Positions 12,001 through 15,000 of a stretch of 15,995 nucleotides of DNA are shown here, in pieces. Location: IMG/VR virus record IMGVR_UViG_2531839661_000011; one strand, 5' to 3'. A program made the position numbers. This DNA is from a virus. Lineage: Duplodnaviria > Heunggongvirae > Uroviricota > Caudoviricetes. Numbering within the stretch: position 1 is the first letter of the stretch; every line of letters starts with the position of its first letter.

Positions 12001-15000
12001 GAAAGAGGCCCACACCGATCCGCAGCGAGAGCATATAGCCCGACGGCGGGAAATATGCCTTGCGAACTTCAGGATGCTGTAAATAAGACTGTTGACGATA
12101 TGGGAATCAGACGGGATCGGCGACATTACGGGTTATGGAAATAACAGCCAGGTAAATTGGTGAATATACGGCAGGCTGCAATCAGAGCCGAACATAGCGG
12201 CCTCTGTCACCATTATCAGACAGTAGCGGTAGTCCTTCCATCACAGCAAAATGCTACCCACTTCACAGCCCCTTAGAAGCCTCTTCGATGGGGTGAAAAA
12301 TCCCTGAAAAAATGCGCAAAAAACTGCGCAAATCGATCATAAAACCGATCACAAAATCGATCACACAGACCAGCAGAGAAAAGCCAGGTATGACGCGGCT
12401 TGCAGGGGGGAAAGGCCACCGGAAAAAGTGCGCATTTTTCTCAAAAACGAAACGCAACAGGAAGCGCAAAACGAAACCGATACGCGATGATCGAAAAAGC
12501 GCGCAAATTTACCGGATTCGGGTAAGCAATTTTGCCTGATTTGGGCAAAATACGGTGTCGCCGTAACAGTGACATTGACACCAAAACAGTGACACACAGG
12601 AGGGCCGATGACCGAACGTTCACCAACAGAGATAATTCACGGGATTATTGAAGAGCAGGAGGAACGCGAGTTAATCCTCATGATTGAAGAGCAGAGAGAA
12701 CACCAGCGCAAACAGGAGGCCACGCTGCCAGAAAGCGTGAGCGCTGAAAATCAGGCTGATGTGCCGTGATGGTGTCGAACTGAGTAACTTAAAGTCACTC
12801 TGTGACCAGTTTTAAACGAGTTGCAAAAAGAGCCGGAGAAAAACCACGAATCTGGGGTTTTTACTGGCGCGGTGTACACGGTGGAACGCACAGCGTTACC
12901 TGACTTATTGCATTGTAAAAAGTTAGAAAGGCACGGCCTGTAAGATGGGATGTTGTGAGTAGTTTAAAGCTACCCGCAAATTCTTTCGTTGTGCTGGCAC
13001 AGGCGGTTAAACCGTCGGTAACTGGATAATCCCCATTGGGGGAAAAGCTGGCTACACCCCTCACATCTGAGGACTGATAACGCAAAATTGCGTTGGCTGG
13101 CAGAGTGCAAATTTGCACGATGGCCTAACCCATTGATTCTTTCGAAAACCCCCATTGGGGGAGAACGGGGGAATAAACCTGACTCATTGATTCTTCCACA
13201 ATCCTCAATTTGAGGAAGTCGGCGCGGTAACTCACTGAGATTAAAGCAAAGCTCAAATCTGAGATGGCTACATCTCTCACATCTGAGGACTGTTAACCAG
13301 CAAGCCGGAATATATTCACAAACTACGAAATTTTCGTAGTTTAACTTTCATCCAGTACATCCCCGAAAACACGGGTATGTACGGAGTTACCGTTACCAAT
13401 AATTATTCGCGAGGTGATTGTTGATGCGTGATATTCAGCAGGTTCTGGAACGCTGGGGAGCGTGGGCGGCAAATAATCGCGAGAATGTGACCTGGTCATC
13501 CGTTGCTGCCGGATTTAAGGGGATTATTCCGCCAAAGATAACATCTCGTCCGCAGTGCTGTGACGATGATGCGATGGTGATATGCGGGTGCATAGCCCGC
13601 CTTTACCGGAACAATCGCGATCTGCATGACTTGCTGGTTGATTACTACGTGCTGGGGAAAACGTTTATGGCGCTGGCACGTAAGCATGGATGCTCTGATG
13701 GACATATCGGAAAGCGGCTACAGAAAGCGGAAGGGGTTGTTGAAGGCATGCTGATGATGCTGGATGTGAAGCTGGAGATGGATCGGTATGTTGAGCGCGA
13801 TTCAGTGACGGCATAACGCGCATAGAAAACCGCAGTCATGAGGAAACTGCGGTGGAGAAATACGGCTTGCCAATCAATCATGAAAAACGTAATCGCCTGA
13901 TAATTATGCCACGAGACAAAGGACGGTGCACCCTGAATGGTCATAATGACCACTCAGACCATCAAGGCAACTATAACGAACATCGTTACAGTTGGAGCTT
14001 TTACCCCGTTGGGGAAAAGGTATTACGATAATGATGATACCTTTAGCAAAGCGTGAATCATCATTACGGTAGGGATGGTCATAATGACCACACCTCCCCC
14101 CCCCACCGGAACAGGGAGGATGACCTACGAAAATTTCGTAAGTCCTACCCCGCACAAGGATTAAATAATCACTACAAGCGATTGATTAAACTTAATTATC
14201 GCGAATCGCGAGAATTAGCCCCGCAGAAACAAGGAAAGAAGAATTTTACGAAAATTTCGTAAAATCCCCCCACATCTCCCACGGTTGCCCGTTAAGTGCA
14301 AGCGCACAGGCACGACCTCATTAACCAGTTACCAGCGCTCACGCTCAAATATCCACAGGAACGGGGCTAAATCGCATTCTGGCGCAATGTTCACTGTCAG
14401 GGCGAGTATTCACCAGAAAACGTCATACAGGCTTACAGTCGGCTTAAAATTCGATAGGCGGATAACAGGGCGTGGATTGGGAGGCTTACGAAAATTTCGT
14501 AACCCCCTACACAAAAGTGCAGGTTACTACCCGAAAAGTGTAGTGCCATTGCTGGGGGCTAAAAAAAACCGCAGTGTGATAACACTACGGCACGCCACCA
14601 AAGAAACATAACAAGGAATCAGCAATGAGTAATACCTGTAAGCCTTCGGGGTGATTGTAACACATGAGCAATATTTTACCGGAAGCTGTTTTTCACTGGA
14701 TCACGTATCGTTATGGGGATTCCCATATCGGAGAGCATCCACCAGCTTCATAACGGATAACCGAAAAATGATAACGGTTAACCTGGAAAAAATTCCGGTG
14801 AATATTTGCCCTGACAGTTTCCATATCGGCGGCACACCTTAAAAAACCGTGTACACAAGGGTGTACACAATCAAAATCGTCATTACAGAAATCCCAGCAA
14901 TGACGCTCCTTTGATGCAGATACTCAATGAGCAGATTCAACATTGAATAACTCGTAACGCCAATTCTTACTTTTCAGCCTTCACAAATGCCGCCCACTCA

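Follow-up and report, generated by a model that had tools for sequence, protein, structure and literature searches.

Paired Palindrome–Hairpin Units in the Non-coding Right End of a PICI-like Satellite Island of Escherichia coli

Introduction

REP and BIME elements are imperfect hairpins of short length in which an internal mismatch is conserved; they form one-orientation arrays after stop codons. They are prone to duplication and deletion, occur at recombination junctions, and have been proposed to serve as RNA 3' structures. PICI-type satellites carry virulence and anti-phage defence genes between Escherichia coli strains. To our knowledge, the non-coding right ends of these satellites are essentially unannotated.

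Here, we describe twin palindromes located in such a right end, within a stretch of DNA of 15,995 nucleotides (referred to below as the window). Related loci are designated by L numbers. The palindrome units share hairpin-array features with REP/BIME-type enterobacterial elements as these are generally characterized. Unlike REP/BIME, the units are confined to PICI-type right ends instead of being dispersed in the chromosome, differ in sequence, are not accompanied by a RAYT-type transposase, and possess each its own stem. They also resemble the boundary or linker sequences of lambdoid phages in being short conserved joints of unrelated modules: the Q cassette, ant remnants, and Type I restriction-modification cargo (L231) all abut palindrome units. 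In contrast to lambdoid boundary sequences, however, the units are dyad-symmetric and display compensatory changes, which points to a constraint beyond supplying homology.

A further system considered was the pR' leader/StxS region of Stx phages. As in these phages, the segment is preceded by a Q933-like Q gene, and AGGATGACC...ACGAA..TT.CGTAA (14117-14141) resembles the leader sequence AGGATGACCCTGTAACGAAGTTTGCGTAA, with 15/16 positions matching in the L231 version. In contrast to the Stx pR' region, the palindrome unit is also present in satellites without Q. Elements of a Q-dependent late promoter (pR'/qut, tR'), namely a -35/-10 pair, a pause element, or a + strand terminator, were not detectable. 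A conserved structural unit with compensatory changes, located exactly at the point of cargo exchange and carried by about 15% of the complete E. coli genomes, offers a concrete target for examining a role in cargo expression or exchange.

The Island and Its Right End

The window is a PICI-like satellite island of about 15 kb from STEC E. coli, where it is integrated into the 3' end of yicC. The island extends from int (1-1263) to the attR core. The attL/attR core GAGCAGATTCAA lies in the 3' end of yicC, and this attachment site is not one used by prophages. Features characteristic of PICIs include an AlpA-type regulator (HTH protein, PHROG 66), a primase, SSB, the size of about 15 kb, and the absence of lysis and tail genes. 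All island operons are encoded on the + strand. The cargo comprises a Q933-like antiterminator and three PerC/Pch-type regulators, with no packaging genes; the island could therefore influence late transcription of Shiga-toxin phages and LEE expression in STEC.

The twin palindromes are located 840-990 bp from the attR core, within a 1.1 kb non-coding right end downstream of the Q antiterminator cassette (Table 1). This cassette is inserted between two palindrome units, i.e., the fourth TACGAAAWTTTCGTA/TACG palindrome and copy 1. Homology to the O157 PICI L005 ends at the former and restarts at 13933. The only matches to Rfam 15 in the window were two C4 RNAs, both outside the segment; in a scan of positions 13780-14960, the best matches had E > 2 and no family was assigned.

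Table 1. Features of the right end of the island (positions refer to the window).
Feature	Position	Strand	Remarks
Fourth TACGAAAWTTTCGTA palindrome	13320..13342	-	Inverted orientation, upstream of Q; brackets the Q cassette with copy 1
Q antiterminator gene, 130 aa	13424..13816	+	phrog_79, 1e-50; PF06530 in L231 homologue
Terminator-like hairpin, leftward transcripts	13829..13853	-	Shares AAAACCGCAGT with hairpin at 14568-14591
Palindrome copy 1, extended hairpin	13933..13957	+	CTG AA TGGTCAT A ATGACCA CT CAG
R' (GACCAT)	13957..13962	+	Direct repeat of right arm, hence complementary to left arm; 11 nt downstream
Hairpin H2	13968..13994	+	CAAC TA TAACGA ACA TCGTTA CA GTTG
Hairpin H3	13998..14021	+	CTTTT(A)CCCC GTT GGGGAAAAG
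Long imperfect helix TACGATAATGATGAT / ATCATCATTACGGTA	14024..14071	+	Junction piece between copy-1 and copy-2 modules
Palindrome copy 2, extended hairpin	14068..14098	+	GGTAGG GA TGGTCAT A ATGACCA CA CCTCCC; outer stem AGG/CCT
C9 homopolymer	14096..14104	+	First C residues pair in copy-2 hairpin; length-polymorphic between strains
TACGAAAATTTCGTA palindrome unit 1	14115..14151	+	G-rich and C-rich flanks
Phage antirepressor (ant) gene remnant	14152..14220	+	59-nt match with phage GER2 (88%); residues 46-68 of GER2 Ant matched by tblastn (E 9e-6)
TACGAAAATTTCGTA palindrome unit 2	14237..14271	+	11-bp arms
TACGAAAATTTCGTA palindrome unit 3	14483..14505	+	91% identical to stretch inside phage GER2 gene
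Second terminator-like hairpin, leftward transcripts	14568..14591	-	
Integrase arm-type repeats GTGTACAC-AAGG-GTGTACAC	14849..14868	+	Match GTGTACCC repeats at attL
attR core GAGCAGATTCAA	14929..14940	+	Duplicates yicC 3' end; right island boundary

The location near the element end and the repeated dyads would suit a cis site of the satellite life cycle, such as a cos/pac packaging site, an attP arm, or an origin/crr-type replicase site; for the latter, P4 crr, which is made of direct repeats, provides a precedent. Several lines of evidence speak against this explanation. No packaging device (helper cos/pac site, TerS, Rpp, or capsid genes) is annotated in the island, and the only packaging-side trace is a 53-aa remnant of orf93, which in PICIs comes next after the packaging genes. 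The lambda cosN sequence GGGCGGCGACCT had no match in the window with up to one mismatch; at two mismatches, the matches were at chance level only and all outside the region. Cos-PICIs carry cosN in two copies elsewhere, as a pair flanking rpp/terS, 550-1400 bp upstream of the palindrome. In the PICI papers, cos was located by cosN/cosQ similarity, and the cf-PICI preprint leaves its position undefined. The integrase arms are the GTGTACAC repeats, the arm consensus GTGTAC(A/C)C being found near both att sites, and the same palindrome is present in islands with 27%-identical integrases. Replicase alleles reassort freely with palindrome type, the same alleles occurring with both types, and the segment was found in no phage. 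Lambda-type cos, att arms, and replicase iterons are thus largely refuted as the identity of the segment, and a life-cycle site of any of these kinds is highly improbable.

Structure and Variation of the Palindrome Unit

The two 17-mers ATGGTCATAATGACCAC reported in the first-pass annotation at 13937-13953 and 14075-14091 are indeed 100% identical and spaced by 138 nt; each includes the 15-bp palindrome TGGTCAT-A-ATGACCA. No third copy was found in the window with up to three mismatches, and one of 200 shuffles reached an equal match count. The helices described between the copies were also recovered: TAACGA/TCGTTA at 13974-13988, CTTTTACCCC/GGGGAAAAG at 13998-14021, and the long helix ATAATGATGAT/ATCATCATTA with arms at 14024-14038 and 14057-14071. 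The predicted folding energy of the 181-nt segment is -61.8 kcal/mol for the + strand (z -5.28) and -78 kcal/mol for the - strand (z -6.11), with 0/200 shuffles as good in either case.

The copy-1 hairpin, which was also found in PICI loci and for which an RNAalifold consensus was obtained, consists of the outer stem CTG/CAG, an internal loop, and an inner stem of 6-7 bp. Hairpin H2 has the same layout, that is, an outer stem, a 2x2 internal loop, a 6-bp inner stem, and a triloop. The outer stem AGG/CCT of copy 2 also occurs in L037 and L231, and its 3' arm includes the first C residues of the C tract.

Three states of the inner stem were identified among the related loci: GGTCAT/ATGACC, AATCAT/ATGATT (25 loci), and GGTG/CACC. 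The outer stem is either CTG/CAG or AGG/CCT, and RNAalifold revealed double-sided changes in 4/9 pairs. The right-arm repeat follows every copy-1-type unit, 11-16 nt downstream in all three inner-stem types, and is missing after copy 2. It changes together with the stem: R' is GACCAT throughout the alignment of GGTCAT-type units, ATGATTA in AATCAT-type units, and CACCA in the GGTG-type unit. Three single-arm transitions, in the palindromes of L233 and L350 and in H2 of L019, yield G.T on the + strand; H3 of L019, in which both sides are changed, also pairs via G.T. Across 13 haplotypes, the H2 stem is invariant or G.U apart from one mismatch. The variation is centred on its loop (ACA, TCA, TTT, or CTT), all three positions of which vary, while the stem is changed at two pairs only (one G.U, one mismatch). 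The H3 variant CTTTTCCGCC/GGTGGAAAAG retains pairing via G.U, and in L037/L267 an unrelated hairpin, CGTCCG/CGGACG, takes the place of H3. The ATG and CATAAT motifs, which had been regarded as possible start and -10-like signals, are not conserved: the GGTG-type unit of L315/L319, TGGTG-GAAAT-CACCA, contains neither, so both appear incidental.

The compensatory stem states, the accompanying right-arm repeat, the G.T transitions, and the loop-centred variation of H2 argue for a unit that works as + strand nucleic-acid secondary structure. Such a unit would be a structural or processing signal at cassette junctions, and not a promoter, start codon, or phase switch. We propose this reading tentatively and rate it somewhat below an even chance. 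The unit would most likely act in RNA, by means of the inner stem of 6-7 bp, the small internal loop, the 3-bp outer stem, and R' as a competing downstream partner. The junctions so marked would be those of exchangeable cassettes: Q in this island, ant and restriction-modification genes elsewhere. Several observations fit this proposal less well. The majority of stem pairs show no variation at all, no more than three or four evolutionary events underlie the compensatory changes, and the shuffle control on H2/H3 was not significant. The GGTCAT-type 40-nt block is nearly invariant in sequence as well as in structure. The scans revealed no consensus promoter or + strand terminator nearby. In addition, 9 of the 16 palindromes of the region are perfect through the central base. 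This is needless for a hairpin loop and more typical of protein-dimer sites or of palindromes perfected by template switching.

Central-base perfection is one reason to consider a double-stranded operator, in which the palindrome and R' would be bound by a dimeric protein supplied by the helper or host. The site would contain two inverted half-sites and a third one helical turn off, and the stem variants would represent specificity classes. The palindrome is perfect and of odd length with an A/T centre, the 17-23-mer is sequence-invariant within each type, and in two variants the distance between the right arm and R' is 11-12 nt. Capsid-forming PICI contexts display an extra GGTCA(C/T) half-site 15 nt upstream, and an 18-nt match, GGTCATAATGACCACTCA, covers the RBS and start of the antirepressor gene in the Stx2a phage F451. 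Against an operator, palindrome type does not co-vary with Int, AlpA, PerC, orf93, or replicase alleles, which are common to the types; operators of AlpA, Int, PerC, or orf93 were rejected on the same grounds. Furthermore, no additional copy occurs elsewhere in the island, and phage matches of >15 nt are rare (3/50,697 records) and situated inside coding sequence. The single-arm G.T variants and GGTG-GAAAT-CACC, with its 5-nt centre, suit a hairpin better than a symmetric site, and about ten different palindromes would each need a binding protein of their own. An operator is therefore unlikely.

Rather doubtful is the possibility that the palindrome/R'/hairpin units form an undescribed family of satellite-specific cis-elements. 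These might be RNA switches, in which the left arm pairs with either the right arm or R', or operator decoys, marking and controlling exchangeable cargo slots (Q, antirepressor, restriction-modification) in the right ends of E. coli PICIs. If this were true, the palindrome array would be a 'socket' by which satellites acquire and regulate accessory or defence genes or manipulate their helper.

Distribution and Modular Arrangement

The 110-nt module composed of the palindrome and hairpins (13933-14042) was detected in 810/5426 complete E. coli genomes (15%), for example in the right end of the O157:H7 PICI that lies between roxA and phoQ, as well as in capsid-forming PICIs and IMG/VR satellite contigs. 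The twin form occurs in about 49 complete E. coli genomes. A scan for the 17-mer in one genome per species gave chance-level matches only, and an orf93-based scan for wider sampling retrieved close E. coli relatives only.

The twin 17-mers are paralogues of each other, both representing a single short dyad/stem-loop unit, which belongs to a palindrome-dense non-coding array between the last gene and attP in E. coli PICI-type satellites. This array is common to cos-PICIs, capsid-forming PICIs, and the present island. Perfect inverted repeats of at least 6 bp number 16 in positions 12770-14929 vs 2.9 +/- 1.7 in shuffles (~5.5-fold), and no such enrichment was seen in the rest of the window. The unit flanks GCGGTAAC...TGATATTTTC repeat on the + strand only, as determined by a motif scan; Tandem Repeats Finder missed this degenerate array.

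Copy 1 heads a widespread 'long' module with the order palindrome, R', H2, H3. Copy 2 heads a 'short' module, which elsewhere runs directly into att-proximal sequence. The two modules are adjacent in this island because of duplication and recombination. In relatives, the copies are spaced by 95, 138, 271, 311, 393, or 404 nt. At the long-helix junction, relatives contain an additional 250-270 nt. Single-copy 'short' islands are hybrids of the copy-1 left flank and the copy-2 right flank, as a deletion between repeats would leave. A mobile insertion with target duplication was rejected, as the inter-copy segment lacks terminal repeats and varies in both length and content from lineage to lineage.

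The behaviour of the unit at junctions agrees with the proposed + strand hairpin signal. The left edge of the palindrome is the joining point of four distinct upstream contexts, the Q cassette sits between palindromes, and the deletion in L003 spans exactly TACG copy 1 (14115 unit) to copy 3 (14486). The distance from the att core, the spread among genomes, the + strand-only flanks, and the density of the array are also in line with this proposal. The degenerate unit copies in L054 and L300 count against it; the unit can therefore decay.

The same region could alternatively be debris, i.e., recombination scars and gene remnants in which palindromes persist through recent module spread and template switching, the twin arrangement being functionless. 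The ant remnant, the orf93 fragments between the copies in L003/L038, and the TACG palindrome within genuine phage coding sequence, where it encodes YEIFV, are all compatible with debris. So are the wide differences in spacing, indels, and order among relatives, the degenerate copies, the frame shifts of short ORFs between relatives, and a C tract that evolves as a neutral homopolymer. Debris would not be expected to retain the module in three satellite architectures and 15% of E. coli genomes, to show compensatory changes in both stems with co-changes of R', or to reach the palindrome density found here. Moreover, the palindrome block is about 3x less variable than the adjoining 60 nt. On balance, we regard debris as a somewhat unlikely, though sizeable, possibility.

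The C Tract

A run of nine C residues was located 4 nt after copy 2, as reported in the first-pass annotation, which had proposed that changes in its length alter promoter spacing or SD context and thereby cause phase variation. The length of the tract does vary among related islands; expression switching received no support. Eleven E. coli chromosomes matched the region with 99.9-100% identity over 1.3 kb, with match lengths of 1301 nt in five and 1302 nt in six. In the three of these that were read, C10 was present in L127/L128 and C9 in L129, this being the sole difference within the island. Long-read homopolymer error could be an alternative source of the C9/C10 difference. However, five strains with the 1302-nt match share the chromosomal coordinate of the island (C10 read in 07_3636, inferred from length in the other four), which suggests that C10 is inherited there.

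More distant relatives carry CCT-CCCCCC-A, i.e., C6 (L003), CCTTCCCCCA with TTCCCCC (L038), or CCTCACCCA with CACCC and no homopolymer (L231). This lack of conservation marks the C9 as a recent slippage-expanded run in the spacer after copy 2, and its variation looks like a by-product of slippage rather than a genetic switch.

Like contingency tracts, the locus has a run of 9-10 C residues, i.e., a homopolymer of about 8 nt or longer, whose length differs among close strains with otherwise identical islands. Unlike such tracts, it is located in neither a promoter -35/-10 region nor a conserved ORF and is missing or interrupted in homologous islands. The sigma-70 consensus scan of positions 13300-15300 found 0 hexamer pairs on either strand vs 3.3 expected by chance, and no -35/-10 pair straddles the C tract as read by eye. 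Since the - strand G run is situated 5' of GGAGG, a change in its length leaves the SD-to-ATG spacing unaffected.

The small ORFs are present: 39 codons from 13937, 29 codons from 14075, and, on the - strand, 19 codons after GGAGGTG. A switch in the frame of the copy-2 product might be supported by the finding that, with C10 instead of C9, the + strand ORF starting in copy 2 grows to 59 codons (26 with C9) and is then in frame with the ant-like remnant. This ORF shifts frame between relatives, has only three near-identical relatives in the databases, and contains no Pfam domain; it therefore does not behave like a gene. RefSeq lists no gene at the twin-palindrome segment in C9 and C10 strains alike. 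A phase-variable switch acting through promoter spacing, SD context, or reading frame is thus very unlikely. For the original observation, the main value of the analysis is negative, namely that the C9 tract should not be taken for a phase-variation switch unless experiments support it.

Other Candidate Identities

Several further identities were examined and rejected. An intrinsic terminator is not indicated, as no T run follows either palindrome copy on either strand. ARAGORN detected no tRNA remnants of the ileZ-argN-argO-like type that follow Q in Stx phages, and Rfam gave no match to the sRNAs Esr41, AgvB, AsxR, STnc100, or StxS-like RNAs. The Pas sRNA preprint offered no lead for the segment. 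Complementarity to the C4 antisense RNAs of the island did not exceed 9 nt. A literature search with the palindrome sequence returned a single irrelevant match, the human oestrogen-response element.

A small protein gene (MTTQTIKATITNIVTV...) was also considered. Its variable sites are distributed 5:3:3 over codon positions 3:1:2 (hand count on the haplotypes), the C-termini change frame, and the ATG is missing in one variant. None of the seven relatives in databases has a Pfam domain or an informative name. In L231, the 69-aa ORF that begins in copy 2 has three near-identical relatives only.

Capsid-forming PICIs contain, just upstream, the sequence GATGACGT-GGCCA-ACGTCAT followed by TTTTTT, which the consensus scan did not flag and which, by eye, resembles a + strand terminator.

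Gene content and boundaries of the island

The window is 100% identical to the chromosome of E. coli O145 RM9154-C1 and to further STEC chromosomes. Positions 1-14940 are a PICI-like island of about 15 kb, integrated into the 3' end of yicC, with dinD on its downstream side. On the + strand, the island encodes, in this order, an integrase, a hypothetical protein, an AlpA-like HTH protein, Rha, a GIY-YIG nuclease, two Icd-like proteins with one C4 antisense RNA (Rfam) per gene, a primase, SSB, a ProQ/FinO-family protein, three PerC-family regulators, and a Q antiterminator, whose DNA is 86% identical to Stx-phage Q. 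No capsid gene, terS/rpp or lambda cosN was found in the island. The three PerC/Pch-family regulators and the Q933-like antiterminator, which it carries instead, may have trans effects on the LEE or on the late promoters of Stx prophages.

The core chromosome starts again at about 14929. Since the last gene ends before 13817 and the att core lies at 14929, the 1.1 kb between these positions form a non-coding right end; the mapped att core places the palindromes described below 840-990 bp away from it.

Both C4 RNA genes (Rfam RF01695, 69 and 73 bits) adjoin an Icd-like gene and have complementary 9-10-nt targets directly downstream. These pairs are a duplicated immunity module of the P1/P7 immI type within the satellite-like island. 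Just beyond attR, dinD is frameshifted in RM9154-C1 according to RefSeq and intact in CFIAFB20190157, the carrier of a sister island.

Coordinates of features in the island and at its right end
Feature	Position	Description
C4 antisense RNA genes	5335-5422; 5815-5903	
C4 RNA targets	5460-5469; 5937-5945	
orf93 remnant	12608-12769	53-codon ORF, apparently a truncated relative of a 93-aa PICI gene (PHROG 1561, function unknown)
Series of small hairpins	12770-13345	ACGCAAAATTGCGT, GTGCAAATTTGCAC, CCCCCATTGGGGG, CCTCAATTTGAGG, CTCACATCTGAGG (twice)
TACG palindrome, four copies	13320-13342; 14126-14140; 14247-14261; 14487-14501	TACGAAAWTTTCGTA
Q cassette	13345-13930	
Q gene	13424-13816	
Leftward terminator-like hairpins	13829-13853; 14568-14591	both contain AAAACCGCAGT
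110-nt block	13933-14042	copy 1 and the first two hairpins
Copy 1, 17-mer	13937-13953	ATGGTCATAATGACCAC
Copy 1, extended hairpin	13933-13957	CTG AA TGGTCAT A ATGACCA CT CAG
Hairpin H2	13968-13994	
Hairpin H3	13998-14021	
Copy 2, 17-mer	14075-14091	ATGGTCATAATGACCAC
Copy 2, extended hairpin	14068-14098	GGTAGG GA TGGTCAT A ATGACCA CA CCTCCC
C9 tract	14096-14104	
Antirepressor (ant) remnant	14152-14220	GER2 Ant residues 46-68
Integrase arm repeats	14849-14868	GTGTAC(A/C)C
Integrase arm repeats		GTGTAC(A/C)C, beside attL
attR	14929-14940	att core GAGCAGATTCAA
attL		copy of the att core at the new yicC end
dinD	15159-15995	

Palindrome units and their distribution

The twin 17-mers, the three helices between them and the C9 run were all recovered as reported in the first-pass annotation, and no further copy of the 17-mer was present in the window with up to three mismatches allowed. 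Both 17-mers are embedded in longer imperfect hairpins, and the fold of the 181-nt segment is far stronger than that of dinucleotide shuffles on both strands (z -5.3 and -6.1). The palindrome unit belongs to an array dense in palindromes: the 2.16 kb from the orf93 remnant to attR hold 16 perfect inverted repeats of at least 6 bp (2.9 ± 1.7 in shuffles), with no excess in the other 12.8 kb of the window. Related islands have up to six consecutive units, in which the + strand flanks (GCGGTAAC...TGATATTTTC) are conserved and the small hairpin differs from unit to unit. The flank GCGGTAAC in related PICIs copies the 3' end of orf93, the 93-aa gene that is conserved in PICIs and comes after terL or rpp in other satellites. 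Many of the small hairpins in the series following the orf93 remnant pair CCUC-like with GAGG-like arms, resembling anti-SD and SD sequences.

The 110-nt block was detected in 810 of 5426 complete E. coli genomes, about 49 of which have the twin arrangement. In O157:H7, where a classic cos-type PICI (int, alpA, icd, repA, ssb, perC, capsid, decoration, rpp/terS and a 93-aa gene of unknown function) sits between roxA and phoQ, the block occupies the right end of that island. In capsid-forming PICIs of other strains it follows hnh-terS-terL-orf93, a placement shared by satellite contigs in IMG/VR. None of 50,697 phage records carries the block, and only chance hits came from a scan in which each bacterial species was represented by one genome. 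Thus, the element is satellite-specific and belongs to E. coli and close relatives. The unit is genuine and conserved, and represents a cis element of PICI-type satellites that had so far gone unannotated.

Sequence states and pairing of the unit

The unit occurs in several sequence states, and pairing is kept throughout. Namely, the inner stem is GGTCAT/ATGACC in the window, AATCAT/ATGATT at 25 loci, and TGGTG-GAAAT-CACCA in a further state; GATCAT/ATGATT and GGTTAT/ATGACC are single-arm changes, which give G.T on the + strand. The outer stem, CTG/CAG at copy 1 and AGG/CCT at copy 2, holds in the window, in a cos-type PICI (L037) and in a diverged Q island (L231). For ten representatives, RNAalifold predicts a hairpin of outer stem, internal loop and inner stem, with double-sided changes at four of the nine pairs.

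Whichever of the three inner-stem types a copy-1-type unit has, a direct repeat of its right arm follows 11-16 nt downstream (GACCAT, ATGATTA, and CACCA), so there are always two sequences with which the left arm could pair; copy 2 lacks this repeat. H2 has the same design as the palindrome unit, its stem being invariant or G.U in 13 haplotypes and its loop variable at all three positions. In H3, pairing is kept via G.U, and one lineage has an unrelated hairpin in its place. The statistical case for selection on pairing is thin: most stem pairs never vary, compensatory changes amount to only a few events, and the shuffle control for H2 and H3 was not significant. The ATG and the CATAAT hexamer, to which attention had been drawn initially, are both missing from the GGTG-type unit and are therefore incidental.

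Cassette junctions

Copy 1 heads a long module and copy 2 a short one. In relatives, the copies are spaced by 95, 138, 271, 311, 393 or 404 nt, with different fillings that include orf93 fragments. Islands with a single copy and the short module have a hybrid unit, CTG...CCT, which combines the left flank of copy 1 with the right flank of copy 2, the outcome expected of deletion between two direct repeats. The sequence upstream of the palindrome is of four unrelated kinds, and homology between different islands sets in at the palindrome's left edge.

Compared with the O157 PICI, Q is a cassette set between two palindrome units, the TACGAAATTTTCGTA palindrome and copy 1. No pR'/qut promoter or tR' was recognisable after the Q gene, so the target of Q, if any, is probably located on another element. 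The stretch 14117-14141 is faintly similar to the Stx-phage pR' leader (StxS region), but the promoter, pause element and terminator of the latter are all missing beside it.

The TACG palindrome is present in four copies versus 0.4 expected, and a sister island has a deletion exactly from the copy at 14126 to that at 14487. This palindrome is also found in phage coding sequence, in genes beside ant (GER2 and Stx2a F451), where it encodes YEIFV. In L231, a complete Type I restriction-modification system (hsdR, hsdM, hsdS; 2238-7989) lies right of the last unit; the right end is therefore also a slot for defence cargo. The palindrome units thus occupy the joints between cassettes that can be swapped.

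The C tract

Islands otherwise identical over 1.3 kb differ solely by C9 versus C10, and hypermutability of the tract is likely. More distant islands have C6, TTCCCCC or CACCC at this position, and the short module of other PICIs has no run whatever (CCT-ACAAAACAGG). Point changes in a C-rich spacer therefore created the run, which slippage then lengthened. Because the copy-2 hairpin extends to 14098, the initial C residues belong to its stem. Other homopolymers of the non-coding tail vary too: a G9 run in L037 (at about 10700) corresponds to GGAGGGAG in relatives, and several loci with CCGG(A)nTCCGG differ in their number of A residues, from A5 to A8.

The proposal that tract length alters promoter spacing or SD context found no support, since the tract is not flanked by promoter hexamers and, read on the - strand, precedes the SD. 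The only predictable effect of C9 to C10 is that a non-conserved ORF grows from 26 codons to 59; C10, not C9, puts the ant remnant in frame with the ATG of copy 2. Phase variation is therefore unsupported. Mosaic recombination and slippage produced the twin arrangement and the C9 tract as by-products. Similarity to contingency loci is limited to the tract being a polymorphic homopolymer.

Identity and possible role of the unit

Several identities were rejected. The palindrome is not a cos site: the window lacks lambda cosN, and palindrome-bearing cos-PICIs hold two cosN copies around rpp/terS, 550-1400 bp upstream. These copies are lambda-like and oppositely oriented in L005 (the O157 PICI; 16509 and 17376), L010, L037, L039 and L054, matching the cos1/cos2 arrangement of EcCICFT073. 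An att arm was dismissed, as the arm repeats have another sequence and one palindrome is common to islands with integrases only 27% identical. Alleles of the replicase and of AlpA, Int, PerC and orf93 reassort freely relative to palindrome type, so the unit is neither a replicase iteron nor an operator of these island proteins. The segment is neither a tRNA remnant nor a known RNA family, and the unit is not an intrinsic terminator. The 36-39-codon ORF from copy 1 is no protein gene: only its first ~16 codons are kept among relatives, its C-termini switch frame, variable sites do not cluster at third codon positions (own haplotype count), and database relatives are a handful of unnamed sequences. 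The ORF from copy 2 is likewise unstable.

We tentatively read the unit as a secondary structure of the + strand, most likely in RNA, and put the chance of this at somewhat below even. It would serve as a structural or processing signal at cassette junctions. This reading is favoured by the location of all units and all operons on the + strand, by three single-arm transitions yielding G.T on that strand, by the survival of pairing through sequence change, and by the dispensability of the ATG and the -10-like hexamer. One of the main doubts comes from capsid-forming PICIs, where, directly upstream of the unit, a hairpin with TTTTTT after it resembles a + strand terminator by eye, unflagged by the consensus scan. 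Also, in nine of the 16 palindromes the symmetry is perfect down to a single base at the centre, something that loops do not require. Such perfection keeps alive two other explanations: functionless debris whose palindromes are kept up by template switching, which we regard as doubtful, and a double-stranded operator bound by a protein of the helper or host, which we consider unlikely.

No sigma-70 promoter was found by consensus scan in 13300-15300. The leftward terminator-like hairpins imply some - strand transcription across the right end, for which no promoter was found.

The unit would gain in importance if it turned out to control or mediate cargo exchange. No description of it was found in the PICI literature examined or by sequence search of the literature. 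Its closest analogues are palindromic units of the REP/BIME type and the boundary sequences found where modules of lambdoid phages join.
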